Shown here: piece by piece, positions 7,630 through 55,980 of the stretch | How the letters are laid out: each line of letters starts with the position of its first letter | How positions within the stretch are numbered: the stretch's first letter is position 1 | Source: an uncultured Chloroflexia bacterium | GTDB taxonomy: Bacteria; Chloroflexota; Limnocylindria; Limnocylindrales; CSP1-4 | DNA: 64,000 bases | Direction of reading: 5' to 3' | Assembly: GCA_963819655.1 (NCBI GenBank) | Contig: CAWFXA010000003.1 | Location: forward strand, 448,001 to 512,000 | Program-made: the position numbers and the translations under genes | The notes under the pieces: generated by a model | Databases searched by the model: none | What the model was told of the DNA's origin: nothing | What the model saw: the letters and a program-made list of their open reading frames with translations, nothing else

Positions 7630-8220
7630 GTGCGCGCCTTCATGACCGTCGGCGAGCTGACGGTCATGCTGCCCGTCGCCGCGTTCGTCGCCCTGGCGCT
7701 GGGAGTCCTCATCGTCCTGCGGCGGGCCGGCCGGATCGTGGCACGTACCCGCGAGGTGGAGGGTTTCCGGTCGTCGGTCCGGGACCTCACGGCGCGGATC
7801 GACCAGTCGCTCGAGGGCGCCACCGGCCGCATCGATGCCGTCCGCCGGGGTCAGCTCGGCGCCGACACGATCGGCCCGACGATCGAGGCCGCGACCGACG
7901 CGGTCGCCCGCTATGCCGACGAGGCCCGCGCTCTGAAGGGCCCGCCGGCGGGCATCCCCATCCGCGATGCGATCGTCGAGGAGCTCGAGCGTGCCGAGCG
8001 TGCGCTTGGCATGGTCGACCACGGGGCGAAGATCCTGGCCCAGGTTCGTCGGCGCGGGCGGGAGGTCGAGGCCCAGACGTCGATCAAGCGCGGGTACCTC
8101 AACCTCGTCCATGCCCGAGATGCGATCGGCCGTCACGCCGAGGCCGCCCGCGGGCTCGAGGTGCAGCCGCCGGACCAGCCGGCCAAGGGGTCCGTCCCGG
8201 CGAGCCAATCTCGCCCCTGA
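7630..8220 (+). CDS. Hypothetical membrane-anchored helical protein
   Basis: Single N-terminal TM followed by a helical region; fills the gap between etfA and nrdR. Confidence 0.7.
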   Translation: MRAFMTVGELTVMLPVAAFVALALGVLIVLRRAGRIVARTREVEGFRSSVRDLTARIDQSLEGATGRIDAVRRGQLGADTIGPTIEAATDAVARYADEARALKGPPAGIPIRDAIVEELERAERALGMVDHGAKILAQVRRRGREVEAQTSIKRGYLNLVHARDAIGRHAEAARGLEVQPPDQPAKGSVPASQSRP

Positions 8221-13574: not shown

Positions 13575-13748
13575 GGCGGGACTCCTGCTGCGGCTACGCC
13601 TTTAGGGCCGGAGTGGCTCCCCGATCCGGTCCCGATCCGAACCGAGCGTAGGCACCGCAGTCTACGCAGCACGCGTTCGTCAATGGCGTACCACGTGACT
13701 GGATCATCGTGCGCCGGTGCTGAGCCCCCCGTCCGTCCGCGGGCGCTT

Positions 13749-40281: not shown

Positions 40282-40284
40282 GGG

Positions 40285-41274
40285 GTGCGCACGGTCGCGG
40301 TCGTGTTCACCGGCGGCACGATCAGCATGGGCTTCGACCCGGTGGCCGGCGGGAACGTCCCGACGCTCGATGGGGCGGCGATCCTGGCGCGGACATCCGG
40401 GCTGGACAGAATCGCCGACGTCGTGCCCATCGACCGGGGCCTGACGCCTGCCAGCCACTTCACGTGGGCGGACGTGCTGGGTCTCGGTGCGGTGATCCAG
40501 GACGCGCTCGACGACCCGTTGATCGATGGGGTGGTGGTCGTGCAGGGCACCGACACGATCGAGGAGACGGCCTTCGCCTGGGACCTCGTGCTGCGATCGT
40601 CGAAGCCCGTGGTGGTGACCGGCGCCATGCGCGCCTCGCACGAGGACGGGTACGACGGGCCGGCGAACCTGCGCATGGCCGTGGCAGCGGCGGCGGCACC
40701 GGCGCTGCGAGACGTCGGGGTCATCGTCGGTCTCGCCGGGACCCTCGAGACGGCCGATGACGTCACGAAGATGCACACCCGGGCCTTCGACACGTTCCGG
40801 TCGCCCAACGTCGGCTCGCTTGGTCGGGTAGGGGAGGACGGCGTCGTCGTGCTCGAGCGAGCGCGTGGGGCACGACGGTCCCTCACGCCTGTGCCGGCCG
40901 ACGGCGCGCGGGTCGAACTTGTCCAAGCGGGCATCGGGTCGGATGGGGCGATGCTCGACGCGGCTGTCGCGACGGGTGCTCGCGGCGTCGTGATGGCGGC
41001 CACCGGCGCCGGGAACACCTCTGCGGGCCTCCTCGCCGCGGCCGCGAGGGCGATCGGGGACGGCGTCTCGGTCGTCCTGGCCTCGCGCTGCCCGGCCGGC
41101 GCGGTGTCGACCGCCTACGCGTTCCCGGGCGGTGGTGCGACGTGGGTCCGCGCGGGCGCGATCCCGGCCGGCGCGCTCTGCGCGATCAAGGCCCGGGTCG
41201 CGCTGGCCCTGGGCCTCGGAGCCGGGCTCGCGCGGGATGACCTCGCAACGCTCCTCGCAGACCCGATAGGCTGA
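40285..41274 (+). CDS. Asparaginase/glutaminase family protein
   Basis: FTGGTISM, QGTDTIEET, VTGAMR, GAGN. Confidence 0.92.
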   Translation: MRTVAVVFTGGTISMGFDPVAGGNVPTLDGAAILARTSGLDRIADVVPIDRGLTPASHFTWADVLGLGAVIQDALDDPLIDGVVVVQGTDTIEETAFAWDLVLRSSKPVVVTGAMRASHEDGYDGPANLRMAVAAAAAPALRDVGVIVGLAGTLETADDVTKMHTRAFDTFRSPNVGSLGRVGEDGVVVLERARGARRSLTPVPADGARVELVQAGIGSDGAMLDAAVATGARGVVMAATGAGNTSAGLLAAAARAIGDGVSVVLASRCPAGAVSTAYAFPGGGATWVRAGAIPAGALCAIKARVALALGLGAGLARDDLATLLADPIG

Positions 41275-41281
41275 CCGCTCC

Positions 41282-42922
41282 ATGCCCCTTGACGCCCTCA
41301 TCACCGGTCGTATCGCCACGCTCGCGGGCGACTCGGGGTTCGGCTGGGTCGAGGCGATCGGGATCCGCGACGGTCGGGTCGCATTCGCCGGCTCTGAGGT
41401 GTACCTGGACACCAGGGCGGACCCGTTCACGGAACGCATCCGCCTCGAGCCGGAGCAGATCGCGATCCCCGGGCTGACCGATGCCCACCTGCATCTGGCA
41501 CAGGCGGCGCTCGCGTCGCGCCATGTGGATCTGGGCGATTCGCCGACACTCGAGGACGGGCTCGCCCTTCTGCGCAAGACGCACGACAAGCTGCCCGCCG
41601 ACGCCTGGCTCGAGGGCCACGGTTGGGATTCGGATCGCTGGGGCGGCTGGCCGACGGCCGACTCGCTGGAATCGGTCGCGCCGGGTCGGAAGGCCGCGAT
41701 CTGGGCGCACGACCATCACGCGCTGTGGGCGAGCCACGCGGCGGTCCGCGCGGCGGAGCTACCCGCTGGCGATCCGCCCGGAGGCGTCATCCGGCGCGCA
41801 GACGACCGGACACCCGAAGGCGTGCTGTACGAGGCGGCCACCCGGCTCATCACGATCCACGTCCCGGCCCCGTCGGCCGAGGACCTCGAACGCGCGATGA
41901 TCGAGGTCGGGCAGGACCTGGTGTCGCTCGGCGTCGTCGCGTGCCATGACCCGGGCGGCGTCGCCCCGGACCCTGCGCTGTCCTACTCGTTCCCGGCATA
42001 CGCTCGGCTGTCCGACGCGGGACGGCTACCGGTCCGCGTCCACGCGTGCATGCGCGACGACGCGGTCGCGGCGGCGATCGAGCAGGGCCATCGCAGCGGG
42101 GCTCGGCTGGGCGCCAACCCTGACGGCCGCGCCACCGTCGGCTGGCAGAAGTGCTTTGCCGACGGGTCGCTCGGGTCGCGCACTGCTGCGCTTCTCGACG
42201 ACATCGAGCCGGAGCCCGACCGACCGCTGCCTCCCGACCTCCGGCGCGGCGTCTGGATGACCGATCCGGACGCTTTACGGGAGCGCGTCCAGTGGGCGTC
42301 CGGCGGGGGCATCGCCACGACGATCCACGCCATCGGCGATGCGGCCGTGCGCGCCGCCCTCGACGTGCTGACCCCGTTCGCGCCGACGTCGCCCCTCATG
42401 CCCCGCATCGAGCACGTCCAGATGCTCCATCGGGACGACCGACCGCGTTTCGCGGCCGCCGGCATCGCCGCCAGCGTCCAGCCCGTCCATCTCGGGTCCG
42501 ACGCGATCCAGGCCTGGAAGCTGTGGGGCGACCGCGCGGAGGCCGAGGGCTACACCTGGAAGGCGATCGCCGACACCGGCGCGGTCATGGCGTTCGGCAC
42601 GGACGCGCCGGTCGAGTCATACGACCCGTGGCCGGGCCTGGCGCTCGCGGTGCGACGCGAGGACGCACGCTGGCCGGCGGGCACACCGGCGTTCGCGCCG
42701 GATGAGGCGCTCACGCTCGAGCGTGCGCTGCGGGCGCAGTGCATCGATGGCCCGGTCTCGGCTCGCGAGCTCGACCGCGGCCGTCTGACGGTCGGCCAGC
42801 GGGCCGACGTCGTTGTGATCCCCGCGGCGTCGCTCGATGAGCAGGTGACGCCGGGTGGTCCGTTGTCGACGACGCGCCCGGACATCGTGCTGATGGACGG
42901 CAAGGTCGTCTTCGAGGTCTAG
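41282..42922 (+). CDS. YtcJ-like amidohydrolase
   Basis: PGLTDAHLH, K.FADGSLGSRTA, HAIGD, RIEH, FGTDAP. Confidence 0.92.
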   Translation: MPLDALITGRIATLAGDSGFGWVEAIGIRDGRVAFAGSEVYLDTRADPFTERIRLEPEQIAIPGLTDAHLHLAQAALASRHVDLGDSPTLEDGLALLRKTHDKLPADAWLEGHGWDSDRWGGWPTADSLESVAPGRKAAIWAHDHHALWASHAAVRAAELPAGDPPGGVIRRADDRTPEGVLYEAATRLITIHVPAPSAEDLERAMIEVGQDLVSLGVVACHDPGGVAPDPALSYSFPAYARLSDAGRLPVRVHACMRDDAVAAAIEQGHRSGARLGANPDGRATVGWQKCFADGSLGSRTAALLDDIEPEPDRPLPPDLRRGVWMTDPDALRERVQWASGGGIATTIHAIGDAAVRAALDVLTPFAPTSPLMPRIEHVQMLHRDDRPRFAAAGIAASVQPVHLGSDAIQAWKLWGDRAEAEGYTWKAIADTGAVMAFGTDAPVESYDPWPGLALAVRREDARWPAGTPAFAPDEALTLERALRAQCIDGPVSARELDRGRLTVGQRADVVVIPAASLDEQVTPGGPLSTTRPDIVLMDGKVVFEV

Positions 42923-44302
42923 GTCGGGCGGTCCAGCTCGCGGAGTGCGTCGGCGAACAGGCCGTTGAAGATCCGCGACGTCGATGGGAAGGCGTGGATC
43001 GTGTCCGCCAGGACGTCGATCGTGACGTGGGCCTGGATCGCCAGCACGCATTCGTGGATCGCCGCCGATGCGTCGGGGCAGGCGATGGCCGCGCCGACGA
43101 GCTCGCGCGACCCGCGGTCGACCACGATCGTGAGGTGGCCGAACGTGGCCTCGAGCGCATAACCGCGACTGCTCTTCGCAAAGTCGGCGACCTGCTCGAA
43201 CGCGTCGAGCCCTCTCTCGTTCGCGGCCTCGAGCGACACCCCGACGAACGCCGCCTCGGGGTCGGTGTACGTCGCGCGCGGCAGCGCGCGGTAGTCGGGC
43301 ATGACGGTCTCGCCCTGGGTCATGCGGGCAACGAGCTCGCCCTGGTAGTGCGCCTGGTGCGTGTGGAGCTCGGGCCCGGCGGCGTCGCCCACGGCGTACA
43401 GCCCGTCGGCGATCCGCAGCCGTCCATCGCGCGGGTAGGGTGGTGTCCGCCCGCTCGGATCGAGGCCGTAATGCTCCAGGCCGAGATCGTCGAGCGGCAC
43501 TTCGCGGCCGACGGCAGCGAGGACCACGTGTCCCTCGGCAGTGGAGCCATCGTCGAGCTCGATGACGTGGGCACCATCCGTGCCGACGCCGGCCCGCGCG
43601 GCCACCGCCCGGACGCCGGTCCGTACCGTCACGCCATCGGCGTTGAGCGTGGCGCGTATCACCTCTGAGTTCCGCGGATGATCGGTCGGGGCGAGGCGCG
43701 GCCCGGACTGGACGATCACCACGGGCACCCCGAACCGGGCGTAGACCTGGGCGAGCTCGCAGCCGGTCGGACCTCCGCCCAGGATCAGCATGCTCCGCGG
43801 CAGCTCACGGGTCAGCGTGGCCTGCTCGTTCGTCCAGACGTCGATATCGTCGATGCCCGGGATCTGGATACGGCGCGAGCCCGAGCCGACCGCCACCACG
43901 ACGTTCGATCCCGACAGGTCGTGGCGGACGCCGTCGTGCGTGACGCTGACCCGCCCGCGACCGACGATCCGCGCGTCCCCGCGATAGACGACGGCACCCG
44001 CCTCCTCGAGCGCGCGGACGTGGCTCGAAATCGTCGGGCTCTGCGGCACCGGCGGGACGGTTCACCATGAAGTCCCGATAGGTGGACGCCCGTGGCCACT
44101 CGTAGCGAGCCGGGTTCGCACGGTGTTCCGCCGCGCCGTGGAGCAGCGACTTCGACGGTACGCAGCCGATGTGCGGGCAGCTTCCACCGAACCAGCGATG
44201 GTCCGCGATCGCGACGCTCGCGCCGAGGCCGCGGGCCTTGTGCGCGGCCGCCTCACCACCCGGGCCGGCACCGATGATGACGAGGTCGAAGATCGGATCC
44301 AT
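42919..44302 (-). pseudogene. Pyridine nucleotide-disulfide oxidoreductase (Lpd/MerA-like) with a frameshift at ~44029
   Basis: GAGPGG and GGSCPHIGCVPSK in one frame; GGGPTG and HAFPS in another; one extra base in a 3-nt homopolymer. Confidence 0.85.
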
Positions 44303-44306
44303 CGCG

Positions 44307-45137
44307 TCAGTCTGCCCGCTGCCGAAGGCGGCCGCGCTGCCGTCGCGCTTCGTACAGCAGGACCGCAGCAGACACCGACACGTTCAGGCTGTCGGCCACG
44401 CCGTGCATCGGCAGGCGGACGGTTGCGACGTCGTCGCCCTCCCAGTCGGCCGTCAGGCCGTCCGTCTCGCTGCCGAATGCGATGGCGAGCGGGCCTGTGA
44501 GGTCCGCGTCGCTGTAGAGGCGCTCGGCGTCGACCCGTGTCGCGACGATCCGGAGAGCGCGCTCGCGCAGCCATCCGACCACCTCACCGGTCGGCGCGGC
44601 CGCAAGCGGCACCGCGAAGATGGTGCCCGCGCTCGCCCGGATCACGTTGGGGTTGGCGAGATCCGTCCGAGCTGACGCGGCGATGAGCGCGTCGGCACCG
44701 GCGCCGTCGGCGCTGCGCAGCACCGCCCCGATGTTCCCCGGCTTCTCGACGCCCTCGACCACGATCACGAGCGGGTCATCGGGCAGGGTCAGGTCGGCGA
44801 GCCGCAGGGTTGGCGCGCGTATGACTGCGACGAGGCCCTCGGCTCGATCGCCGAAGGCGAGCTTCGCGAACGCGGTCTCGGTCGTGCCCGTGATGGGGAC
44901 GCGGGCCGCGGCCAGCAGATCGAGCGCCGCCCTCGCGTCCTCGCCGGCGAGCAGGGGTTCGCACACGAACGCCTCCACGACCTCGACCCCGGCATCGAGC
45001 GCGCGGCGCAACTCGCGTGCACCGTCGACCAGCGTCAGGCCGGTCGACTCGCGCTCGCGTCGATCGCGCAACCGGGCGACCGACTTGATCCGCGGGTTCG
45101 ATGGGCTGGCAAGGGCAGGGGAGGGCATCGCACTCAT
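44307..45137 (-). CDS. TrmH/SpoU family RNA methyltransferase
   Basis: PGNIGAVLRSAD, FGSETDGL, SLNVSVS. Confidence 0.93.
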   Translation of the reverse strand: MSAMPSPALASPSNPRIKSVARLRDRRERESTGLTLVDGARELRRALDAGVEVVEAFVCEPLLAGEDARAALDLLAAARVPITGTTETAFAKLAFGDRAEGLVAVIRAPTLRLADLTLPDDPLVIVVEGVEKPGNIGAVLRSADGAGADALIAASARTDLANPNVIRASAGTIFAVPLAAAPTGEVVGWLRERALRIVATRVDAERLYSDADLTGPLAIAFGSETDGLTADWEGDDVATVRLPMHGVADSLNVSVSAAVLLYEARRQRGRLRQRAD

Positions 45138-45974
45138 GATGCGCCGCTCCCGCGGGCGAAGGCACCCAGCTCGAGGCTCGCACCGGACGTCGCGCGAAGA
45201 ACCAGCTCGCCGATCTCGACGTCATCGACGACCGTCGACAGCCACGCGCCGAGATCGTCGGCGTCGATCCCCTCGGTGTGGGCGGTCAGGAGCACCCAAC
45301 CCGCCGGCGTGAGGAGCCGGCGGATGTCGTCGAGAAGTGGCTCCAGGTCGTCCTCGAGTCGCCAGGCCTTGCCAGACGCGCCGTGCCCGTAGGTCGGCGG
45401 GTCGAGGACGACGCCGTCGTAGCGCCGTTCGCGACGGAGCTCGCGCGCCACGAAGGCACCGGCGTCGTCCACGATCCAGCGGATCGGGCGGTCGGCGAGC
45501 TCGTTCAGCGCCGCGTTCCGTCGCGCCCAGGCGACGGCGGGCCGTGCCGAATCGACGTGTGTGACGGCGGCGCCGACGCGAGCAAGAGCGAGCGTCCCCA
45601 TACCCGTGTAGCCGAACAGATTGAGGATCGACGGGCGCTCCGTGGCGGTGTCGGTGCCCTTCCGGTCGACGTGCGCCGTCGACCACGGCAGCATCGCGGC
45701 GTGCTCGGGGAAGACCCCGACCTGCCCGGAGGGGGTGGGTCGAAGCTCGAAGGCGAGGTCGGCGATCCGGGCGATCCAGCCGTTCCGTGCCTTGACGAGA
45801 CCGGTCCCACTCCAGCCCGTTGTCGCGATCGAACCGCAGATCGGCGTCCGCCCACTCGCGCGGCGAGCGCTGCCGCTCGCCGATGGCCGCGGGATGCGGT
45901 CGGTGGACGATGTGATCGCCGAATCGCTCGAGGCGCGCGCCGTCACCCGCGTCGATGAGCTCGTAGTCGTCCAC
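45134..45974 (-). pseudogene. RlmI/RlmK-like SAM methyltransferase with a frameshift at ~45821
   Basis: YELIDAGDGARLERFG in one frame; GVFPEH, LNLFGYTG, LDPPTYG in another; start approximate. Confidence 0.8.
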
Positions 45975-46047
45975 GGGCTCATCATCATCGAAACCGCGTA
46001 CGCCGAGCCGTCGAATCGTCTGCAAGGAACGGAGAAGGAGGGTCCGC

Positions 46048-46188
46048 GTGGTCCGTCGATCGATCCTGGCGTTGGTGCTGGTCCTGGCCGCCGCCCTGGG
46101 CGCCTGCACGAGCCCGTCCGGTGGAGGGTCGGGCGGCGGCGCGTCAGGCGCCCCGTCCGAATCGCCCGCCGCCAAACCGGGTTACTGA
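46048..46188 (+). CDS. 46-aa lipoprotein (not in the ORF track)
   Basis: AGGAGG SD; MVRRSILALVLVLAAALGAC-TSPSGGGSGGGASGAPSESPAAKPGY; lipobox LGAC. Confidence 0.7.
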   Translation: MVRRSILALVLVLAAALGACTSPSGGGSGGGASGAPSESPAAKPGY

Positions 46189-46405
46189 GCGCGCGTCGTC
46201 GTCACGCGAGCAGGTTTGTCGGTCGCGGCCCCGTTCGGGTACGATGCCCGCTGCCGTACGGGTCGCGGCACCGTCATTTCCGGCGCCTAGGTGAGACGTG
46301 GAACATCTCGCCGTTACGGGTTCCGGGAGAGGCGATGTCGAGGCACGAACGGTAGGTTCCGACAGTCGTCGGGTGTAGCCACACTCGGCGGACGCCGGAA
46401 CCGTC

Positions 46406-46445
46406 GGGCGGCTAGCTCAGCTGGTCAGAGCACTTGCTTGACATG
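46406..46445 (+). repeat. 5' half of tRNA-Val (att site)
   Basis: 39/40 identical to 50576-50615; identity ends just after the anticodon loop. Confidence 0.92.
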
Positions 46446-46706
46446 AGCGAGCGCCCTACGGCCGTGCTAGCCGCTTACTCATGCGCGGCTTTCCCACCGT
46501 CACCCACGCCGATATCGGCTGTCCGGGATCGGCTCTAATCGTGCCTCACCCTGGTCGGCCCGGACCAACTCACGGCTCAGGGGACCGAGGGCTCGGGAGC
46601 CCGACCGACCCATTTCTGCCCCGCGGGGTATCCTGCGCCCTTCGACCTTGAGCCAGCGGGAGGGCAATTCCCTCCCCGCCTGAGGACGACAGAGGGGTAC
46701 CGTCCA

Positions 46707-47147
46707 ATGGCCAAGTTCGACTGCACCACGACGATCAAGCGACCCGTCGAGGAGGTCTTCGCAGTGCTGAGCGACTTCTCGAAAGGTCCGGAGTGGTCCT
46801 CGAGCGCCGTAGAACCGGCGAAGAAGACCTCAGATGGTCCGATCGGCGTCGGAACGACATGGCACGCGTTCGGCAAGACCGCCGGTCGGAAGTTCGAGAG
46901 CGACGTCAAGTACACCGAGTTCGAGGTGAACCGAAAGATCGTCTCTACCGTCACGAAGCCATTCCCGACGACGCTCACGGTCACGCTCGAGACGGTTCCC
47001 GGTGGCACGCGTGTCGACCAGACCGTCGACGGCGAGCCGGGCGGGTTCTTCAAGCTCGCCGAGCCGCTCGTCGTGAAGATGTCCAAGCGACAGTTCCAGG
47101 GCGATCTCGACAACCTCCGCGACCTCATGGACGCTCGCGCGCTCTAA
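46707..47147 (+). CDS. SRPBCC family protein
   Basis: IKRPVEEVFAVLSD...PEW...GPIGVGT...DLDNLRDLM. Confidence 0.88.
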   Translation: MAKFDCTTTIKRPVEEVFAVLSDFSKGPEWSSSAVEPAKKTSDGPIGVGTTWHAFGKTAGRKFESDVKYTEFEVNRKIVSTVTKPFPTTLTVTLETVPGGTRVDQTVDGEPGGFFKLAEPLVVKMSKRQFQGDLDNLRDLMDARAL

Positions 47148-47281
47148 CCCGGCAGCGGCCAAAGAAGACGTCAGGTCCCCGTCGGCCCGGACCGACTGGC
47201 GGCTGACGAGGGATCGAAGGTCCGGGGCCGGAGCCAGGGCGATGACAGCCTAGCGGTCGCCCTACCGCAGACTTAGCTGTG

Positions 47282-47500
47282 ATGTCCCGACGATCGGCTC
47301 CTGAACGCCTCGACACGGCCTGGCAAGCCGGCGTCCGCAACCGCCTCACCGGCGAGGGCATGACCGAAGCGACGGCCGACGCCTGGATCGCCGTGTGGGA
47401 GGTTCACGCGGCGCAGGACGTCGTCGAACGCGGTTCTGGTTACTGGGAGGCAGCCTGGGTTGGATCGCCGCTCAGCCAAAGGATCGGGTCAGGCCGAACC
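47282..47500 (+). pseudogene. Small Trp-rich protein, frameshifted near 47460
   Basis: ADAWIAVWEVHAAQD...YWEAAW, then WIAAQ in a shifted frame; similar to 28722-28940. Confidence 0.5.
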
Positions 47501-47704
47501 CGGTCGGCCCGAACCGACTGGCCGACTCGGGGCGCCCAATGCCCACCGGTCGCGCTGGACGGCCGACCGAGGGTGACGGAGCCGGAGACGGCGTCCGCGC
47601 GCTGCCATCCCCGGCCCATGGGGAAGGCCCCTGACGAGTGGGAGGAAACCAGCACCCACCCGGAGCCTGAGCTGCCAGAGGACCAACGACTCCCGCGGGT
47701 GAAC

Positions 47705-47860
47705 TCACAAACCGAGGATCTTCACGAACTTGCCGGTGCGGACGTAAGGCTCGGCGTTGAAGCCGAACTCCTCCTCCGCCCGGAAGCCGGTGACGTTCGG
47801 GTCGAACCTCGAGCCCGCCTTCGACGACACCTCGATCCGGTTGCCGGCGGCCTCACAGAC
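47705..47860 (-). pseudogene. C-terminal fragment of an HK97-like phage major capsid protein
   Basis: Manual translation RIEVSSKAGSRFDPNVTGFRAEEEFGFNAEPYVRTGKFVKILGL*, resembling the F..N...FRAEE..GF capsid motif. Confidence 0.65.
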
Positions 47861-47942
47861 GGCGGCCGCCTCCCCTGCCGTGACGGCCGAAGCACGCAGA
47901 CGGACTACAGTTGACGGACCGCCGGGAGAAAGGGAGATACGG

Positions 47943-48443
47943 ATGCGGAAGATTGCGAGCGTAGGCGCCGCCTTGCTGCTGCTGCTCGCGGCAGCCGGAC
48001 CCGCCGCCGGAGCGAGCCGTACCTACTCGGTGCACCTGGATGGCGACACGGAGGTGCCGGCGAACGCGTCGCAGGCGGCTGGGCAGGCCGTCTTCCAACT
48101 GAGCCGTGACCGCACGTCGCTCGAGTACATGCTGATCGTCGCCAATCTGGACAATCCGGTCGCGGCGCACATCCACGTCGGTCCGACGGGCGTGAACGGA
48201 CCCGTGGTCGCGAACCTCTTCTCCGGAGTGCCAGGAGATGGGACCGCGAACGGGATGATTGCGGAGGGCACGATCACCGCGACAAATCTCACCGGGCCGC
48301 TTACCGGTCAACCGTTGTCGGCGCTCGTCGAGGCTCTCAACTCCGGCAACGCGTACGTCAACGTGCACACGAACGATGGCGTGCCGCCTGCCGGTACCGG
48401 CCCGGGCGATCTCCCGGGCGGCGAGATTCGCGGGGACTTCTAA
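47943..48443 (+). CDS. Secreted CHRD domain protein
   Basis: Signal peptide; L.G..EVP, AAHIH.G..GVNGPVV, AYVNVHT...PGGEIRG. Confidence 0.92.
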   Translation: MRKIASVGAALLLLLAAAGPAAGASRTYSVHLDGDTEVPANASQAAGQAVFQLSRDRTSLEYMLIVANLDNPVAAHIHVGPTGVNGPVVANLFSGVPGDGTANGMIAEGTITATNLTGPLTGQPLSALVEALNSGNAYVNVHTNDGVPPAGTGPGDLPGGEIRGDF

Positions 48444-49060
48444 GAGTCCTGAAAACGTCCGCCAGCGTCCGTCGCTGACGGACTCGCGCACGGATACGCC
48501 TCAGAGGCGGGTGTCCCATGGGGGATGTCCGCCTCTGTTGCAACCAGCGTTGCTCCCAAGCGGCCTCTGCAAGGCGCCGGTCGGCCCGGACCGACTGGCC
48601 GCTGACACGGGATCGAAGGTCCGGGACCGGAGCCGGGTCGCCACACCGTACCCGCCGACCCTTACCGGCGGCTTCACGGTCGGGCCGAACCACGGACCGC
48701 ATACAAGATGCTCGTACAGCCGGTTTCGGACCCGCCACAACCGTCTTCTGCGCCGGCGGCTTGCTGGAAAGCACGAAGCCGATGGATACATCGTTTGGGC
48801 TCGAGCCCCCAACGAACGAGTAGCCGTGGCACAACGTGCAGGGGACCTCAAGACGGCACGGTCATGACCGTGCCGTCGTCCTTTTCTCTTGGGAGCCTCC
48901 GCTGCGAGCGATGTGCGGCCCGGCGAGGAGATGGTCCGGCTACCCTCGCCGTCAGGACACGGCGCAGGCTGTCGGCGTACGAGCGGGAGCAGCGGGCGAG
49001 GCGCGGCACGCCCCAGGCCGATCCCCGGCCGTGAAAGCCCGCCGAATCGCGTGAAGCTGG

Positions 49061-50035
49061 TTAGTGTTCGACCACCTTGGCGAGCTTGCCAGCCTGGTCG
49101 ATCCAGGCCGCGACCTCGGCCTCGCTCGGGACACGACGGACGATGCCCGGTCGTGCGGCGACGACCTCCTGGACCGTGGTCGCGAGGTTGGCTGGGTTCC
49201 GCTGGGCGAGCTCCGCGGGTGAGCCGACGCCAGCCGCCTGGAGCAGGTCGCTGTATTGCGGCCCGACGCCCGGGACCCGCATGAGATCGACGATGTCGAC
49301 CCACTCGAGGACGAGCTTGCTGCTGATGCCCGTGGCCTCCGCGAGCCTCTCGCGGTCATTGGGCTTCGCACCGGCCGCGAGCAGGTCGTCGGTCGTCGAG
49401 ATGCCGACCGCCGCGAGCCGCTCAGCTTGTGCGGGGCCGATCCCTTCGACATCCTCGATCCGCAGGTGATGCTCGCCGACCGACGCCGAGACGGGCTCCG
49501 GGGAGGCCGATTCTGGCGCCGTCGTCGTGGCCGCCGCGGCTGCGATCGGCGCTACTGACGCGATCGGCGCTGCTGACGCGATCGGCGCTGCTGCGGGCGG
49601 CGCTGCCGCTACAAACGCCCTGGGCTCCGCGGCCGGCGACGGCCGCTCACCGACCCCGAACGCCTCCTTGACCTCGCTCGTGCTCAGGTACCACAGGATG
49701 AACGCCGGCATGAGCGCGATCCCGAACGCGACGCCGGTGCCCGGGAACTGGAAGAAGGCCAGGACCGCCTCGAACAGCCCCAAGCCAGCTACGATCTGGG
49801 CGAAGAGACGCGCCCACGGCTGGAGCGCCCACAGTCCAACGGCAGCGAGGAGCCAGACGATCCCCGTGGCGACGGCGAGCCAACCCCAAAGCCCGACCTG
49901 CTCGAAGACAGGCAGATCGCCGAGTGCGCCAAACCAGTCGAAGCCGAGGACCCGCAGTCCGAAGAACAGGAATCCGAATCCCGCGAGTGCGGCGAAGAAG
50001 CCGATGACTGCGATGAGGACGGGTGGGTTCTTCAC
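49061..50035 (-). CDS. Membrane protein fused to DUF4332 (helix-hairpin-helix) domain
   Basis: 4 TMs, Ala/Pro linker with a 3 x 18-bp repeat (49542-49595), IEDVEGIGP...DLMRVPGVG...ELAQRNPANL. Confidence 0.85.
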   Translation of the reverse strand: MKNPPVLIAVIGFFAALAGFGFLFFGLRVLGFDWFGALGDLPVFEQVGLWGWLAVATGIVWLLAAVGLWALQPWARLFAQIVAGLGLFEAVLAFFQFPGTGVAFGIALMPAFILWYLSTSEVKEAFGVGERPSPAAEPRAFVAAAPPAAAPIASAAPIASVAPIAAAAATTTAPESASPEPVSASVGEHHLRIEDVEGIGPAQAERLAAVGISTTDDLLAAGAKPNDRERLAEATGISSKLVLEWVDIVDLMRVPGVGPQYSDLLQAAGVGSPAELAQRNPANLATTVQEVVAARPGIVRRVPSEAEVAAWIDQAGKLAKVVEH

Positions 50036-50059
50036 GGAGCGCCCCTCAATCCGATCGGG

Positions 50060-50500
50060 TCACGACGACGGTGGCTCCCGGAGCGGGGCCTGCCCCACAT
50101 GACTCGCCAACTCTAGCGCGCTGCCAGCCACTCCGCAGGACCGTCCGGCCTGCTCGCCAGCACGCCAGATCTGGCCCCGGACGTCGTCCATGACGTTCTC
50201 GAACCAGGCGAAGAACCTCTGGCAGCGCCTATATCGCAAATGGACGGTGGTGGACTTGTAGCCCTTCTCGGATAGGGCGATCTGCCACCGCTCGGTGTGG
50301 CGGCGTTCGATCGCCTTGGTGTCGGTGGGGAGGTTGTTGTCGACGAGGAATTGGGCGAGCGATGCGACGGCGCCAGCATAGGCGTATACGGTGTTGCCGC
50401 TGACGTTCTGGGCCTTCAGGTGATCGATGAACGCCCAGTAGTCGTCGGCCAGGTCGCCGGGTGTGACGACGCTGGGGAGTGTTGGTATAGTCGCCGCCAT
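50060..50500 (-). pseudogene. Truncated tyrosine integrase (N-terminal SAM-like core-binding domain only)
   Basis: FIDHLKAQNVSGNTVYAY...GYKSTTVHLRY....RFFAW; no catalytic R-H-R-Y domain; next to the att site. Confidence 0.8.
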
Positions 50501-50575
50501 CGGAAAGAGCCTCGGCTCAACAGCGCCGTGCTAGTCAACAGCAAAGCGTTCTAGGCTCTTCCCGAACACAAAACC

Positions 50576-50652
50576 GGGCGGCTAGCTCAGCTGGTTAGAG
50601 CACTTGCTTGACATGCAAGAGGTCACTGGTTCGAGTCCAGTGTCGCCCACCA
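50576..50652 (+). tRNA. tRNA-Val(GAC)
   Basis: Acceptor GGGCGGC/GTCGCCC, anticodon arm CTTGC-TTGACAT-GCAAG, TTCGAGT, CCA. Confidence 0.97.
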
Positions 50653-50659
50653 CATCCTC

Positions 50660-50895
50660 AAAGAGAGCATCGAGCGGGACGCGCCATCCGAGCCATCGAT
50701 CCCCAGAGAGCCGGGCCCCAGGCTGGAAGCCCGACGATCGAGCCGGAGTGGCACCACCCGCGAGCGATCGGTGAACCGATCCGGGAGTCGCCCGATAGCG
50801 CGGCCACGAGAGCGCTACGTCCCAGCGACGTAGCGAACGCGGGTGGAACCGCGGGAGGTCGAAACCTCTCGTCCTGCACGGACGAGAGGTTTTCT
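50660..50895 (+). ncRNA. T-box riboswitch (Thr) upstream of thrS
   Basis: AGAGAG and GCTGGAA stem I motifs, candidate ACC specifier ~50753, T-box AACGCGGGTGGAACCGCG (50836-50853), terminator aaacctctcgtcc/ggacgagaggtttt; 5' boundary approximate. Confidence 0.88.
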
Positions 50896-50913
50896 GATTC
50901 CTGAGGAGTCGAC

Positions 50914-52755
50914 ATGACCGACGACGACAACATCGAAGTCGAAGAAGAGCCGATCGAGCTCGAGTCGCCCGAGCGCGGCAGCGCCACGGAGCTGATGGAC
51001 CACGGGGCGAGCGGGGAGCTCGGCCCGATGCGCCACAGCGCCGCGCACGTCCTCGCCGAGGCGGTCCTCGACCTGTTTCCTGGCACCCAGCTCGGGATCG
51101 GACCCGTCATCGAGGACGGCTTCTACTACGACTTCCTCCTGCCTCGACCGCTGACGCCGGACGACCTCCCGAACATCGAGGAGCGGATGCGCGAGTCGAT
51201 CGCAGCGGATCACCCGTTCGAGCTCAGCGAGGAGACACCGGAGGCGGCGCGGGCGGCCCTCGTCGAACGCGGCCAGCCGTTCAAGGTGGAGATCATCGAT
51301 GACCTGCTGGCCGCCTCGAAGCGCGACGGCACGCCGATGCCACCGACCACCTTCTATCGGCAAGGCCCGTTCATCGACCTGTGCCGCGGACCGCACGTCG
51401 AAAGCACCGGCAAGATCGGCCCGTTCAAACTGCTCGGGACCGCCGGTGCCTACTGGCGCGGCGACGAGAAGCGCCCGATGCTCCAACGCGTCTACGGCAC
51501 GGCCTGGGCGACCCAGGAGGACATCGACGCGTATCTCTGGCGCCGAGCCGAGGCGAAGAAGCGCGACCATCGCCGGCTCGGCGTCCAGCTCGACCTGTTC
51601 TCGTTCCACGACGTCTCGCCCGGGTCCGCGTTCTGGCACCCGAAGGGCCAGCGGATCTGGCGGACCCTCGAGGAGTCGATGCGCGAGCTGCAGGCGAGGC
51701 GCGGCTACCAGGAGGTCTCGACCCCGATCGTCGTGAGCGAGCGGCTGTGGCGTCAGTCGGGCCACTGGGAGCTGTACCGCGACAATATGTTCCTGATCGA
51801 ATCCGAGAACCAGACGTTCAGCCTCAAGCCGATGAACTGCCCGGAATCGACGTTCATCTACCGCTCGAAGCTGCGGTCGTATCGCGACCTGCCGTTGCGG
51901 TTCAGCGAGTTCGGGCGGCTTCATCGAAACGAGCGCTCCGGAACGCTGTCGGGGCTGACCCGGGTGCGCCAGTTCATCCAGGACGACGCTCACCTGTACG
52001 TCCGTCCGGACCAGTTGATGGACGAGATCCAGGCGCTCCTCGGCGAGGTCCGCGAGTCGTACGGCTGGTTCGGCCTGACGCCGCGGTTCGCGTTCGCGAC
52101 GAAACCCGACAAGGCCCTCGGCGATCCGGCGCTGTGGGAACGCGCCGAGCGGCTGATTACGGAGGCGTTCGCGGCAAGCGACATCACCTACGACCTGAAG
52201 CCCAAGGACGGCACGTTCTACGCGCCCAAGATCGACATCTACATCGACGACGCACTCGGTCGCGAGTGGCAGATGGCGACCATCCAAGTCGACCTGACGA
52301 TGCTACCCGAGCGGTTCGACCTGACGTACATCGACGAGGAGGGCAAGCCGCAGCGGCCGATCGCCATCCATCGTGCGATCTACGGCTCTCTCGAGCGGTT
52401 CATCGGGATCCTGATCGAGCACTTCGCGGGCGCCTTCCCGCTGTGGCTCGCGCCTGTGCAGGCTGTCGTCATCCCGATCGCGGATCGGCACGTCGAGGCC
52501 GCCGAGGAGCTGGCCGGTGTGCTGCGTGAGCGTGGGCTGCGGGTCGAGGTCGATGACTCGTCAAACCGGATGCAGTACAAGATCCGGACCGCGCAGGAAC
52601 AGAAGGTGCCGTACATGGTCGTGCTCGGCGACCGCGAGATCGAGGCGCGGACCGCCTCGCCGAGAACCAGGGCAGGGGAGCAGCAGGAACCTCAGGCGTG
52701 GGAGGCCTTCGCCGACCGGCTGGCAGAGGAGTCGCGCGCCCGGGCGATCGAGTAG
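50914..52755 (+). CDS. thrS: Threonine--tRNA ligase (lacks the TGS domain)
   Basis: RHSAAHVLA, DLCRGPH, KRDHR, KPMNCP, FYAPKID, HRAIYGSLERF. Confidence 0.97.
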   Translation: MTDDDNIEVEEEPIELESPERGSATELMDHGASGELGPMRHSAAHVLAEAVLDLFPGTQLGIGPVIEDGFYYDFLLPRPLTPDDLPNIEERMRESIAADHPFELSEETPEAARAALVERGQPFKVEIIDDLLAASKRDGTPMPPTTFYRQGPFIDLCRGPHVESTGKIGPFKLLGTAGAYWRGDEKRPMLQRVYGTAWATQEDIDAYLWRRAEAKKRDHRRLGVQLDLFSFHDVSPGSAFWHPKGQRIWRTLEESMRELQARRGYQEVSTPIVVSERLWRQSGHWELYRDNMFLIESENQTFSLKPMNCPESTFIYRSKLRSYRDLPLRFSEFGRLHRNERSGTLSGLTRVRQFIQDDAHLYVRPDQLMDEIQALLGEVRESYGWFGLTPRFAFATKPDKALGDPALWERAERLITEAFAASDITYDLKPKDGTFYAPKIDIYIDDALGREWQMATIQVDLTMLPERFDLTYIDEEGKPQRPIAIHRAIYGSLERFIGILIEHFAGAFPLWLAPVQAVVIPIADRHVEAAEELAGVLRERGLRVEVDDSSNRMQYKIRTAQEQKVPYMVVLGDREIEARTASPRTRAGEQQEPQAWEAFADRLAEESRARAIE

Positions 52756-52766
52756 GCCGGCTGGTC

Positions 52767-53384
52767 ATGCCCGATCGTCGCCTACTCGCGGTCGATGTCG
52801 CGATCAAGGTCGTGACGGTCGTCCTGTTGGCCTGGGCGGTCGGGAACCCGGATCTCCCCCAATTCAGCGGCAAGGCGTTCACCGGCCGCGCTCTGGCGTA
52901 CCCCATCGCGCTGCTCGTCCTGCCGGTCGGGTGGTCGTTGCTCGCGCGTGGGCGGCTCCCGTATCCCGTCGCCGCTGACATCCTCCTCGGGCTGCCATTC
53001 CTGATCGATGTCGCCGGGAACGCGCTGAACCTCTACGACACCGTCGAGTGGTGGGACGACGCGAACCACCTGGTCAACTGGGCGTTGCACACTGCGGCGA
53101 TCGGGTTGCTGCTGCGGGCCGGGCCATGGGGGCCGTGGACGCGCGCCGCCTTGGCGTTCGGCTGGGCGGCGAGCACGGCGGTGGTCTGGGAACTCGCCGA
53201 GTATGTTGCGTTCGTGCCGAACTCGCCGGAGGCCGCGACGGCGTACGCCGACACTCTCGGTGACCTGGCACTCGGGCTGCTAGGCGGCGGCATAGCAGCC
53301 ATCGTGGTGAGTCGCCTCCCGGGGCGCGGAGCGAAGCCGGGCTATGAGCCCGTTCCCGAGCGATCCACCGGCGAGTCCAGGTAG
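52767..53384 (+). CDS. Membrane protein (DUF2238-like)
   Basis: LYDTVEWWDDANH, VWELAEY, YADTLGDL. Confidence 0.7.
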   Translation: MPDRRLLAVDVAIKVVTVVLLAWAVGNPDLPQFSGKAFTGRALAYPIALLVLPVGWSLLARGRLPYPVAADILLGLPFLIDVAGNALNLYDTVEWWDDANHLVNWALHTAAIGLLLRAGPWGPWTRAALAFGWAASTAVVWELAEYVAFVPNSPEAATAYADTLGDLALGLLGGGIAAIVVSRLPGRGAKPGYEPVPERSTGESR

Positions 53385-53516
53385 CCCGCGGCGCCGGCCC
53401 GCACCGCCCCGTTCGTTGTCGACCCCGGAAGGCCTGTGCTATCCTGCCCGCTCGTCCGGTGGGGGCCGTCTGCCCGTGCCGGTCGAGTCCATGTCCAGCA
53501 CCGCGAGGGGTGAACC

Positions 53517-54200
53517 ATCAGCCGAGACCTGCGTGTCAACCAGATGATCCGGATCCCACAGGTCCGGGTGGTCGATGAAGAGGGTGCCCAGCTGGGTGTC
53601 ATGCCCACGCCGCAGGCCCTCGAGATGGCGCAGGAACGGGGATACGACCTCGTTGAGGTCGCTCCGATGGCCCAGCCCCCGGTGGTCCGGTTCCTCGACT
53701 TCGGGCAGTACAAGTACGAGCTCACGAAGCGGGAGAAGGAAGCCAAGCGCAAGCAGCGCTCGGTGACCTTCAAGGAAGTCCGTCTGACGCCGAAGATCGG
53801 CGTGGGCGACTTCGATACCAAGGTCCACCGAGCGATCGAGTTCCTCGAGGATGGCGACCGGATCAAGGTCACGGTGCGCTTCCGGGGTCGGGAATTGACC
53901 CACCCGGAGATCGGCCGAAACCTCATCGCCAGGTTCGTGGAGCGAGTCAAGGATCACGGAGTCGCGGAACGAACGCCGCTGCTCGAGGGCAAGTCGATGC
54001 ACATCACGATGGCATCGATCCACAAGCCCAAAGGCCACGACGCACCGGACCGCAAGCACGCGCCGGATGTCATCCCGGCAGACGCGACGGCTGAGCCGCC
54101 GCCCGCGCCCGAATCTGAAACAGTCGTGGCTCAGCCGAAAGCCGTCGCCCCGCCCAAGGCGCCGGCACAGACGCCCGAGCCGGTCCAAGCAGGAGAGTGA
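53517..54200 (+). CDS. infC: Translation initiation factor IF-3, AUC start
   Basis: GAGGGGTGA SD, then ATC-SRDLRVNQMIR; DLVEVAP...PPV; VRFRGRE. Confidence 0.95.
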   Translation: MSRDLRVNQMIRIPQVRVVDEEGAQLGVMPTPQALEMAQERGYDLVEVAPMAQPPVVRFLDFGQYKYELTKREKEAKRKQRSVTFKEVRLTPKIGVGDFDTKVHRAIEFLEDGDRIKVTVRFRGRELTHPEIGRNLIARFVERVKDHGVAERTPLLEGKSMHITMASIHKPKGHDAPDRKHAPDVIPADATAEPPPAPESETVVAQPKAVAPPKAPAQTPEPVQAGE

Positions 54201-54207
54201 GGCCACG

Positions 54208-54405
54208 GTGCCGAAGATCAAGAGCCACAAGACGGCCCAGAAGCGCATCGGCAGGACCGGTAGCGGCAAGTACATCCGGGTCAAGGCGTGGCGTGGCCAT
54301 CATCTCGAGATCAAGTCGTCGCGACGGACCCGGCGCTACGCCGGCAAGACCGTGATCAAGGCCGTCCACACCAAGCAGGTCCGGCGCCTGCTGCCGTACC
54401 TCTAG
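54208..54405 (+). CDS. rpmI: 50S ribosomal protein L35
   Basis: MPKIKSHK.AQKR...TGSGK...LLPY. Confidence 0.95.
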   Translation: MPKIKSHKTAQKRIGRTGSGKYIRVKAWRGHHLEIKSSRRTRRYAGKTVIKAVHTKQVRRLLPYL

Positions 54406-54420
54406 GAGCCACACCCCGTC

Positions 54421-54771
54421 ATGGCACGAGTCAAGCGCGGCGTCACCGCTCACAAGCGCCACAAGCGCCTGCTCAAGGCGGCCGAGGGCCGCAAGGGCAC
54501 CCGCTCGAAGCTGGTCAAGCCGGCTCGCGAAGCCCTGCTCCACGCGCTCGCCTACGCGACCCGTGACCGCAAGCAGCGGAAGCGCCAGATGCGCGAGCTG
54601 TGGATCGTCCGGATCAACGCGGCCGCCCGCCAGAACGGGCTGACCTACGGGCAGTTCATCAACGGCCTCAAGCGCGCCGATATCGAGATCGACCGCAAGA
54701 TCCTGGCCGACCTGGCCGTGCGCGACAGCGCGACGTTCGGTCGCATCGCCGAAGCAGCCAAGACCGCATAG
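54421..54771 (+). CDS. rplT: 50S ribosomal protein L20
   Basis: [33 protein letters not shown]. Confidence 0.98.
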
Positions 54772-54854
54772 CCTCGACTGGCTCGCGGGAGTCTCGCGAT
54801 CAGTCCTCCGAAGGCCGAGCGCGCACGTCGAAGCGCATCGGCCTGAGGAACGCC

Positions 54855-55895
54855 GTGGATCTCGCCGACCTGACCCGCGATCTGGAGGCCCTCCAGTCGG
54901 AGGCGCTGGCGTCCGTCGCCGCCGCGCCGGATGCCGCGACGCTCGATGCGCTCGAGCTCGAGATCCTCGGCAAGAAGGGCCGGCTCACGACCGTCCTGCG
55001 TGGGATCGGCGGTCTCGCGGCCGAGGACCGCCCCAAGGTCGGCGCGGTCGCCAACACGGTCCGCACGACCATCGAGGGCGCGCTGACCGAACGCGGCACC
55101 ACGCTCCGCGGATCGGAGCTGACCGCCCGACTTGCCGCTGAGGCGATCGACGTCACGACCCCCGGCCGCCCGATCCGGCGCGGCACGCTCCACCCCAGCA
55201 TCGAGGCCATGCGCGAGATCGCGCAGATCTTCGAGCAGTTCGGTTTCGTGACCTACGAAAGCCCGGAGATCGAGGACGACCTCACCAACTTCCAGATGCT
55301 CAACATCCCGCCCGACCACCCGGCCCGGGACCTGTGGGACACGTTGTACGTCGACGTCGAGGGGCGCTTGTTGCGGACCCACACGTCGCCCGGCCAGATC
55401 AGGGTGATGCAGACCGAGACGCCCCCGATCCGGGCGCTGCTCCCCGGTCGCTGCTTCCGGTACGAGGCCATCGACGCCAGCCACGGCTCGGAGTTCTTCC
55501 AGGTCGAAGGCCTGATGATCGATGAAGGCACGACGATGGCCGACCTCAAGGGTCTGCTCGACCAGTTCGCGAAGGCTATGTACGGCGCCGACAAGCGCAC
55601 CCGATTCCGACCGGGCTACTACCCGTTCACGGAGCCGTCCGTCGCGTTCGACGTCGAATGCCTTGTGTGCGGCGGCACGGGTTGCCCCGCCTGCGGCCGG
55701 ACCGGCTGGATGACGATCCTCGGCGCGGGCATGGTCCACCCTGTCGTGCTCCAGTACGGCGGCCTCGACCCCGAGCGCTACCAGGGCTTCGCCTTCGGCA
55801 TGGGCCCCGAGCGGATCAAGATGCTCAAGCACGGCATCACCGACCTCCGGCTCTTCCTCGAGAACGACCTTCGCTTCCTCGAGCAGTTCCGGTGA
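54855..55895 (+). CDS. pheS: Phenylalanine--tRNA ligase alpha subunit
   Basis: HPARD, LRTHTSPGQ, FFQVEG, YYPFTEP, GFAFGMG. Confidence 0.97.
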   Translation: MDLADLTRDLEALQSEALASVAAAPDAATLDALELEILGKKGRLTTVLRGIGGLAAEDRPKVGAVANTVRTTIEGALTERGTTLRGSELTARLAAEAIDVTTPGRPIRRGTLHPSIEAMREIAQIFEQFGFVTYESPEIEDDLTNFQMLNIPPDHPARDLWDTLYVDVEGRLLRTHTSPGQIRVMQTETPPIRALLPGRCFRYEAIDASHGSEFFQVEGLMIDEGTTMADLKGLLDQFAKAMYGADKRTRFRPGYYPFTEPSVAFDVECLVCGGTGCPACGRTGWMTILGAGMVHPVVLQYGGLDPERYQGFAFGMGPERIKMLKHGITDLRLFLENDLRFLEQFR

Positions 55896-55980
55896 GGGGA
55901 ACCTCCGACCGATGGCTCGCAGTCGCGTCGCCTCGGCCGTCGGTGCGTGATCGCCGGTACCCCATCGAGAGTGGCCAGTA

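Follow-up and report, generated by a model that had tools for sequence, protein, structure and literature searches.

An ~85-nt palindromic repeat as a possible joint between gene modules in small tRNA islands of Limnocylindria-like Chloroflexota

The DNA analysed here is a 64,000-nt stretch from an uncultured Chloroflexia bacterium (contig CAWFXA010000003.1, positions 448,001–512,000; hereafter the window), in which a small island at a tRNA-Val gene holds four copies of a short palindromic repeat between its genes. The two complete copies belong to a family of ~85-nt imperfect palindromes found in Chloroflexota genomes. The copies of this family stand in co-oriented arrays, the arrays are polarized with respect to a tRNA fragment, homology between related regions breaks at repeat edges, the cargo differs at one and the same tRNA site, and a hairpin that is asymmetric between the two strands is maintained. 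We tentatively favor the reading that the element forms the joints between gene modules of 0.3–5.6 kb, which are swapped by recombination in small tRNA islands of Limnocylindria-like Chloroflexota.

According to this proposal, modules carrying one repeat copy each would be added, lost or swapped by DNA-level recombination at the joints, and the outcome would be co-oriented arrays that start beside the tRNA-fragment end of the island. Recombination would take place at the repeat itself. It may be site-specific and proceed via a folded single strand, as at attC sites, rather than homologous between the 85-nt repeats, and the recombinase would be encoded elsewhere in the genome.

The 16-nt core of the repeat, GTCGG-CCCG(G/A)A-CC(G/A)AC, occurs without mismatch on the + strand at 46554, 47181, 47503 and 48580, exactly where a sequence-only reading of this DNA had placed four same-orientation copies, with spacings of 627, 322 and 1077 nt. 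When up to two mismatches are allowed across the 64 kb, nothing else matches except copies 2 and 4 read in reverse. The window holds six core matches, compared with 1.38 ± 1.13 expected, and none of 100 shuffles reaches six. Copy 2 (47173–47257, + strand; 80.2 bits with the covariance model, and included in alignment A1, both described below) and copy 4 (48572–48655, + strand; 77.1 bits) are full members of the ~85-nt family, with 87% identity across 69 nt (47173–47241 versus 48572–48640), so the long match between them that had been noticed earlier is genuine. The full-length copy 2 consists of a 5′ core hairpin, a variable small hairpin, and a conserved 3′ arm and tail. Copies 1 and 3 retain mainly the 5′ core. 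In copy 1 (46546–46627, + strand, exact core at 46554), ~100 nt from the tRNA fragment, the core is retained and the 3′ half is different; it scores 20.7 bits (E 0.049) with the covariance model, and 24.8 bits over profile positions 3–55 with nhmmer. Copy 3 (47498–47524, + strand, exact core at 47503) is the core only, sharing ~27 nt; it matches profile positions 4–30 at 18.0 bits and is not reported by the covariance model. These scores agree with the earlier description of copy 1 as more diverged and copy 3 as a short core. By model score alone, both are within the chance range of unrelated genomes (maximum 34.9 bits), and therefore their membership rests on clustering and shared strand. A fifth copy, sought across the window with the core pattern as well as the covariance model, was not found, again as first reported.

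To identify the family, 185,579 species-representative genomes were scanned with a degenerate version of the core (20 nt), and at least 123 loci were obtained. The extended element is present in at least 28 of these listed loci, all from 12 metagenome-assembled genomes (MAGs) of Chloroflexota, labelled as uncultured Chloroflexia, Chloroflexota or Candidatus Limnocylindrales; the 28 family loci were chosen by eye from their sequence contexts and then confirmed with the model. Covariance model R1 was built from 26 full-length copies (alignment A1), and the model-fitted alignment A2 contains 46 distinct rows. The top 51 family rows score 53.7–94.8 bits (with duplicates from overlapping loci counted) and the other six 28.4–32.8 bits. 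The remaining 95 loci, which amount to 875 kb from many phyla, share only the 20-mer and reach at most the 34.9 bits mentioned above. The best identity between the window and the fetched loci is 74–84%, and none of them overlaps the window at high identity, which places the source genome itself outside the fetched loci.

From 5′ to 3′, the element in A1 is composed of a short C-rich lead-in, the core, a conserved GACTG, a small hairpin, a conserved segment (GGATCGAAGG), the 3′ arm and the outer stem. The core can form a hairpin of its own, with a stem of 8 bp, a loop of 6 nt (8-6-8) and one G-T position, which confirms the inverted repeat around a 6-bp spacer seen by the sequence-only reading, and the 3′ arm pairs with the loop and the 3′ half of the core. 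The small hairpin is variable in sequence and length, the central part varies by up to ~20 nt, and a conserved, GTGACAGCCTAG-like tail is present in about half of the copies. No description of the element was found in the literature on Chloroflexi integrons and attC sites, on Limnocylindria, or on tRNA-island cassettes and palindromic repeats of Chloroflexota, supplements aside; the Limnocylindria genome paper PMC13212565 does not once use the terms repeat, integron, cassette, integrase, palindrom or genomic island.

Arrays, tRNA fragments and cargo

After overlapping loci were merged, 13 regions were compared, namely 12 related regions and the window. They contain 47 copies of the repeat as detected by nhmmer, and ten of the 13 carry arrays. 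Adjacent copies are co-oriented in 33 of 34 pairs, with a median spacing of 751 nt (range 292–5606 nt; ≤1100 nt in 22 of 33). The ARAGORN program places tRNA genes in eight of the 13 regions. Six regions are islands bounded by a partial tRNA, with the fragment at one end and the intact tRNA at the other: the window (Val), L062 (Arg-TCT), L015 and L051 (which share one Arg-TCG site), L033 (Asn) and L017 (Leu). The island of L017 is less clean in that it would contain genes located outside the island in L051. Further tRNA fragments are found in L052 and L008 (Pro), CAWABV5_236k (Val) and L080 (Arg-like). Nine regions have a fragment on a single side, and in every one of them it stands 5′ of the repeats, at 76–784 nt from the first copy (two-sided sign probability ~0.004). 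L008 has tRNA fragments on both sides of its array, and in CAWABV5_552k a whole tRNA-Pro is located 95 nt away from the first copy, at its 5′ side. The cassette-array-like architecture suggested for the window thus recurs in its relatives, in co-oriented arrays and islands edged by partial tRNAs. The tRNA genes of these islands are of at least five different kinds and are not confined to tRNA-Val.

The duplicated part of the tRNA is not the same in all islands. It is the 5′ half, with the island upstream of the intact tRNA, in the window and in L062 (15220–15257 with 2270–2345), and the 3′ part in L015, L051, L033 and L017; integration at the 5′ side of a tRNA is an unusual arrangement. Two-component genes that are 89% identical lie beside tRNA-Leu in L017 (759–2875, with the tRNA at 620–706) and beside tRNA-Arg in L051 (13904–16020, with the tRNA at 13704–13780), so the tRNA neighbourhood itself has been rearranged. 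The possibility that the repeats are tRNA-derived att scars was discarded, as none of them was matched when 12 tRNAs were compared with the regions by blastn-short; a T-loop-like GATCGAA motif in the repeat is an impression only.

Shared sequence ends at the edges of repeats more often than expected. For homology blocks of at least 200 nt, 23 of 124 block ends lie no more than 25 nt from a repeat edge, compared with a random expectation of 2.9 ± 1.7 (maximum 10 in 2000 draws). A repeat–SRPBCC–repeat unit is shared by CAWABV5_552k and L017 with 88% identity over 679 nt, although the two regions are non-syntenic and lie at different tRNA loci, and nothing beyond the outer edges of the two repeats is homologous. 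One gene-plus-repeat unit is common to CAWABV5_236k, L062 and L017, and CAWABV5_57k and L019 have another gene in common, along with no more than the 23-nt core of the repeat that follows. L015 and L051 share their flanks and their tRNA-Arg site and no cargo, so that cargo between the copies, which a gene-capture array had been expected to vary, does differ at one site. Within the tRNA-Arg island of L015, a 31-nt piece of tRNA-Asn (8181–8211, 100% identical) lies between the two repeats, which suggests that islands located at different tRNAs have exchanged pieces.

The cargo consists of small accessory genes. An SRPBCC gene is found in or beside the arrays of eight of the 13 regions (the window and seven others), and other cargo includes DinB_2, DUF1801, SnoaL_2, GNAT, alpha/beta hydrolases, cyclase-like proteins and ECF sigma factors. 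Several arrays contain or adjoin a member of one ~270-aa family (L062 4142–4948, L077 1751–2563, L080 8666–9640 and L074 6253–7041), in which a weak adenylate/guanylate cyclase domain is recognized and the N-terminus has a conserved, PRPSTPEDAMRGF-like start.

Could such a distribution arise from a selfish small palindromic element of the miniature inverted-repeat transposable element (MITE) or repetitive extragenic palindromic (REP) type? In that case the element would spread in variable islands, and the shuffling of genes would be a passive by-product of homologous recombination. The imperfect palindrome with terminal inverted arms is what one would expect of it, and so are the many near-identical intergenic copies per genome, the decay of copies to heterogeneous truncated forms (a loop deletion in L062, an internal deletion in CAWABV5_552k) and the lack of a dedicated recombinase near the arrays. 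However, insertion at random predicts neither the co-orientation of 33 of 34 pairs nor the polarity toward the tRNA fragment. An empty site, with both flanks adjoining elsewhere, was found for 0 of the 28 repeats that have a flank match in another region, and no consistent target duplication was found at the repeats, with TAG within 20 nt upstream in just 13 of 53 copies (a weak preference). No transposase or RAYT-type gene was seen in the ~230 kb of sequence examined around the arrays. The other ~60 kb of the window contain no copy, and hence the dispersed, REP-like element that the sequence-only reading had set against its own proposal does not appear in the available sequence. We consider this explanation rather unlikely.

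Hairpin, gene direction and recombinase

The hairpin of the element is maintained among the copies. In A2, 91.3% of the stem cells are paired, compared with 87.2 ± 0.4 in shuffles and 16–64% in slid controls, and the covariation predicted earlier is present, with 11 pairs changed on both sides against 3.6 ± 1.2 in shuffles, none of the 500 shuffles reaching 11; since these changes were counted on a model-fitted alignment of related copies, the shuffle controls overstate the significance and the result is indicative only. The inner stem (10 bp) is 95.7% paired, with 15 G-T cells versus two A-C cells. The bulged bases are on the 3′ arm of the element. Of 44 copies, 31 fold more stably on the strand as read when RNA parameters are used, and 32 when DNA parameters are used.

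A hairpin of this kind may also act at the RNA level, as a transcribed terminator or insulator, an mRNA stabilizer or a regulatory leader, with the tail being part of the promoter of the next gene. An inner stem that tolerates G-U and not A-C is consistent with such a role, as is the greater stability of the strand as read; moreover, copies are found near gene ends and starts, and in a subset the tail is followed, 20–30 nt on, by the start codon of the small Trp-rich gene described below. In contrast, the orientation of the repeat tracks the array and not the flanking genes. Upstream genes share the strand of the repeat in 20 cases and lie opposite to it in 14; for downstream genes the numbers are 18 and 18 (crude gene calls), so repeat orientation is independent of the direction of the neighbouring genes. 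An Rfam scan of 40000–56000, in which only tRNA and T-box were found, gave no match with E ≤ 1 at any of the four copies, the copies have no T-tract, and a scan of 46300–49100 for sigma-70-type promoters gave 0 promoters. The folding z-scores of the window copies range from +0.98 to −2.15, with energies that are unexceptional relative to shuffles. We therefore regard an RNA-level function as improbable; as to the structured-RNA option of the sequence-only reading, the stem covaries, but repeat orientation does not follow gene direction. A hammerhead-like resemblance ('CTGA.GA...GAA') noticed by eye in the repeat has no Rfam support.

A role at module joints at the DNA level fits these observations because the copies are co-oriented, the arrays are polarized relative to the tRNA fragment, homology breaks at the repeats, orientation is independent of gene direction, and a one-strand hairpin is maintained. 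Several points, together with the dependence among the aligned copies noted above, weigh against it. Outside the inner stem there is no excess of G-T cells, the numbers of G-T versus A-C cells being 8 versus 14 in the outer stem and 0 versus 13 in the small hairpin. The 'core-only' copies end at varying points past the core, which looks like decay or deletion and not like one precise crossover point. In some shared blocks the repeat goes together with the segment upstream of it and in others with the one downstream, so that no fixed cassette unit can be defined. The core genes of the CAWABV5_552k and L017 genomes are ~89% identical, the same level as the 88% of their shared module, and vertical descent followed by rearrangement may hence account for it as well. 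The loci were selected by their core content, and the distribution seen is that of the listed loci only. Genes in the related loci were called with a crude picker based on GC content at third codon positions (GC3), which short or broken genes can escape. Finally, Pfam recognized no integrase, recombinase or transposase domain, PF00589 and Y1_Tnp included, in 219 open reading frames (ORFs) of the 12 related regions, of which 157 are located no more than 3.5 kb from an array and the other 62 have at least 110 aa, and the integrase gene of the window is truncated.

This truncated gene (50060–50500, − strand) encodes 146 aa of a Xer-like tyrosine recombinase, of which the N-terminal SAM-like domain is left (Pfam Phage_int_SAM_1 only). 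Approximately 108 of the 146 aa (72–74%) align to full-length Xer-like relatives of 315–332 aa. These relatives lie below every curated NCBIfam cutoff and score 33–39.5 bits with the integron-integrase model TIGR02249, whose cutoff is 265 bits, and thus the gene of the window is not an integron integrase. When the fragment was used as a tblastn query for integrase remnants in the related arrays, it matched only the window. Beside the tRNA, an integrase is present in truncated form in the window and absent in five or six related islands. The repeat is common to islands at five or more different tRNA genes, which one island integrase cannot account for. The sequence-only reading had linked the repeats to the adjacent tyrosine integrase; this link does not hold, given a truncated gene, the variety of tRNA genes and the absence of recombinase domains among the 219 ORFs around the related arrays.

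The tRNA-Val island and its small Trp-rich gene

The island spans 4.1 kb between the intact tRNA-Val(GAC) at its proximal end (50576–50652, + strand, from the tRNA search) and a partial copy of the 5′ part of this tRNA (46405–46445, + strand), which represents the distal direct repeat or att scar; the 41 nt are 98% identical to 50575–50615 (97.5% over 40 nt with blastn-short). The tRNA-Val island proposed earlier is therefore real. From the fragment to the intact tRNA, the order is repeat 1, SRPBCC gene, repeat 2, small Trp-rich gene, repeat 3, a segment common to other arrays, CHRD gene, repeat 4, DUF4332 gene, recombinase remnant and tRNA. The GC content in 400-nt windows is 0.61–0.72 (mostly 0.63–0.70) inside 46400–50600 versus 0.70–0.77 in 40000–46000, and GC3 is 0.72–0.82 in the array genes versus 0.85–0.95 in the flanking genes.

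Two cargo genes are recognized by Pfam, the SRPBCC gene (Polyketide_cyc2; 46707–47147, + strand, E 4.2e-16) and the CHRD-domain gene (47943–48443, + strand, E 2.6e-23), whose product has a hydrophobic N-terminus that looks like a signal peptide. The segment at 47578–47893 (− strand), ~80% identical to L046/L074, L025 and L080, includes the frame that had been called a capsid fragment; this label is dropped, as Pfam, PHROGs and a tblastn search of 50,697 phage records gave no match. Of the genes between which the copies had been placed, the SRPBCC, CHRD and small Trp-rich genes are thus supported and the capsid gene is not. On the tRNA-proximal side, a membrane protein with a C-terminal DUF4332/helix-hairpin-helix domain is encoded at 49061–50035 (− strand, Pfam E 1.4e-36), and has a homologue beside tRNA-Arg in L015. 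Head-to-tail repeats of 15–18 nt within this gene (49532–49608) encode an Ala/Pro/Ile/Ser-rich linker. Only one terminator-like site, unrelated to the repeats, is present in 46300–49100. It is a perfect hairpin of 11 bp with a T-rich tail (48852–48877, + strand) in the gene-poor DNA that separates repeat 4 from the DUF4332 gene. Beyond the tRNA, a T-box leader-like match (50661–50879, + strand; 40.6 bits against an Rfam gathering threshold of 93, E 3.8e-06) lies directly upstream of a threonyl-tRNA synthetase gene (50914–52755).

The small Trp-rich gene (47282–47500, + strand; ORF 47279–47914) belongs to a rare family with just eight homologues of 72–74 aa among 5.8 billion proteins, and the protein has no Pfam or PHROGs family and no Atlas match. 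It is predicted to form a three-helix bundle (pLDDT 85.1), for which no fold match in the PDB was found at E ≤ 0.001 (best E 2.2). With tblastn, 17 high-scoring segment pairs were obtained at 16 places in eight of the 12 other regions. The gene is directly downstream of a repeat in at least six cases, several of them 28–104 nt away, and in a subset the conserved repeat tail is followed by the start codon 20–30 nt further on. The C-terminus of the window copy diverges from the family, and its frame lacks the usual stop after ~72 codons and runs through repeat 3 (47282–47914, 211 codons). Judged from its reading frame, it is probably a frameshifted or decaying copy.

The frequent company of this gene brings up another explanation, in which the repeats are scars or backbone of small integrative elements stacked by tandem accretion, each of which brought its cargo and a repeat serving as putative binding site or operator of the 72-aa protein. 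The 16 places mentioned above, with the gene directly downstream of a repeat at least six times, agree with it. So do the presence of two tRNA fragments in L052 and L008, the foreign tRNA-Asn fragment inside the L015 array, and the position of the first repeat, which in four regions (the window, L051, L062 and L080) is 76–130 nt away from the tRNA fragment. However, accretion at a tRNA att site would leave one tRNA fragment per joint, and most joints have none; most repeats have no adjoining small gene; and the small protein shows no recognizable DNA-binding fold in the PDB search. Stacked integrative elements are in our judgment quite unlikely, and swapped modules with the repeat at their joints are still the reading that we prefer.

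Comparison with known systems

Integrons are the only well-understood builder of single-gene cassette arrays. A second, unrelated family of sites doing the same job would, if true, widen the known routes by which accessory genes are assembled, and it would do so in a phylum that is abundant and uncultured in soil and freshwater; covariance model R1 would then be a practical marker for the flexible genome in Chloroflexota MAGs. By analogy with integrons, the element might be the recombination site of a new Chloroflexota gene-cassette system in tRNA-integrated islands, with integron-like function, a folded single-strand hairpin, circular modules, polar growth and another recombinase, and with the rare 72-aa three-helix protein perhaps as an accessory factor. 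This more specific proposal we hold to be unlikely. If the element is merely a passive repeat, it still explains the mosaicism of small tRNA islands and still flags a conserved 72-aa family that travels with it.

The consensus of attC sites has the outer core triplets AAC ... GTT (RYYYAAC / GTTRRRY). Like attC, the element is an imperfect palindrome in which the arms are conserved, the centre varies in length and one arm has unpaired bases. In contrast, its arms read CCCCGG.../...CCGGGG and GGTCGG/CCGAC, and neither A1 nor A2 has an AAC/GTT pair at the arm ends, as judged against this consensus; the earlier remark that the GTTRRRY pattern of attC is lacking is thus correct. Cassette genes in integrons are mostly co-oriented with their sites, whereas here they lie on either strand (see the counts above), and the arrays here are within tRNA-bounded islands where the nearby recombinase is a truncated Xer-like one that fails the integron-integrase model. 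Clusters of attC sites without an integrase are known as CALINs (Cury et al. 2016, PMC4889954). The likeness to such arrays (PMC4889954) lies in imperfect palindromes that stand in one orientation at single-gene spacing, their arms conserved and their centre variable, as well as in small accessory cargo, similar copies within a lineage, a neighbouring integrase that is often absent and a strand-asymmetric hairpin. By the features compared, the element does not look like an attC site of an integron, even though its arrays resemble those of cassettes.

REP elements and bacterial interspersed mosaic elements (BIMEs), MITEs of the Correia/ERIC type and mycobacterial conserved terminator-like hairpins are likewise GC-rich imperfect palindromes that occur in many intergenic copies and can have promoter or terminator activity. 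These elements are dispersed genome-wide; BIMEs alternate in orientation, REP elements and BIMEs are associated with a Y1 (RAYT) transposase, and MITEs show target duplications and empty sites. The repeat described here differs from REP elements and BIMEs in its nearly uniform orientation (all but one of the 34 pairs), in its polar arrays in islands and in the absence of copies outside the island in the 64 kb. It differs from MITEs in having no consistent target duplication and no empty site among the 28 repeats considered.

Additive flexible islands of Alteromonas accumulate varying cassettes at tRNA genes, with partial tRNA repeats as their hallmark (PMC4898812). The islands are alike in being a tRNA-adjacent hotspot with different cargo at the same site in relatives, whereas the joints there are tRNA-derived repeats left by integrases, and here they are mostly the ~85-nt non-tRNA element, with integrases missing (PMC4898812).

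The dif modules appear to be a looser analogue than integron attC arrays and CALINs. The pdif sites have 28 bp (11-6-11), alternate in orientation and are recognized by XerC/XerD. The repeat in the Chloroflexota islands, in contrast, has 8-nt arms, is co-oriented, carries ~60 nt of extra conserved structure and is chromosomal. In Acinetobacter, plasmid dif modules are bounded by pdif (Xer) sites (PMC6449649, PMC13141974). Small modules there lie between short sites with two inverted arms around a 6-nt centre and are shuffled among replicons by a recombinase encoded elsewhere, a plan that the Chloroflexota arrays may share.

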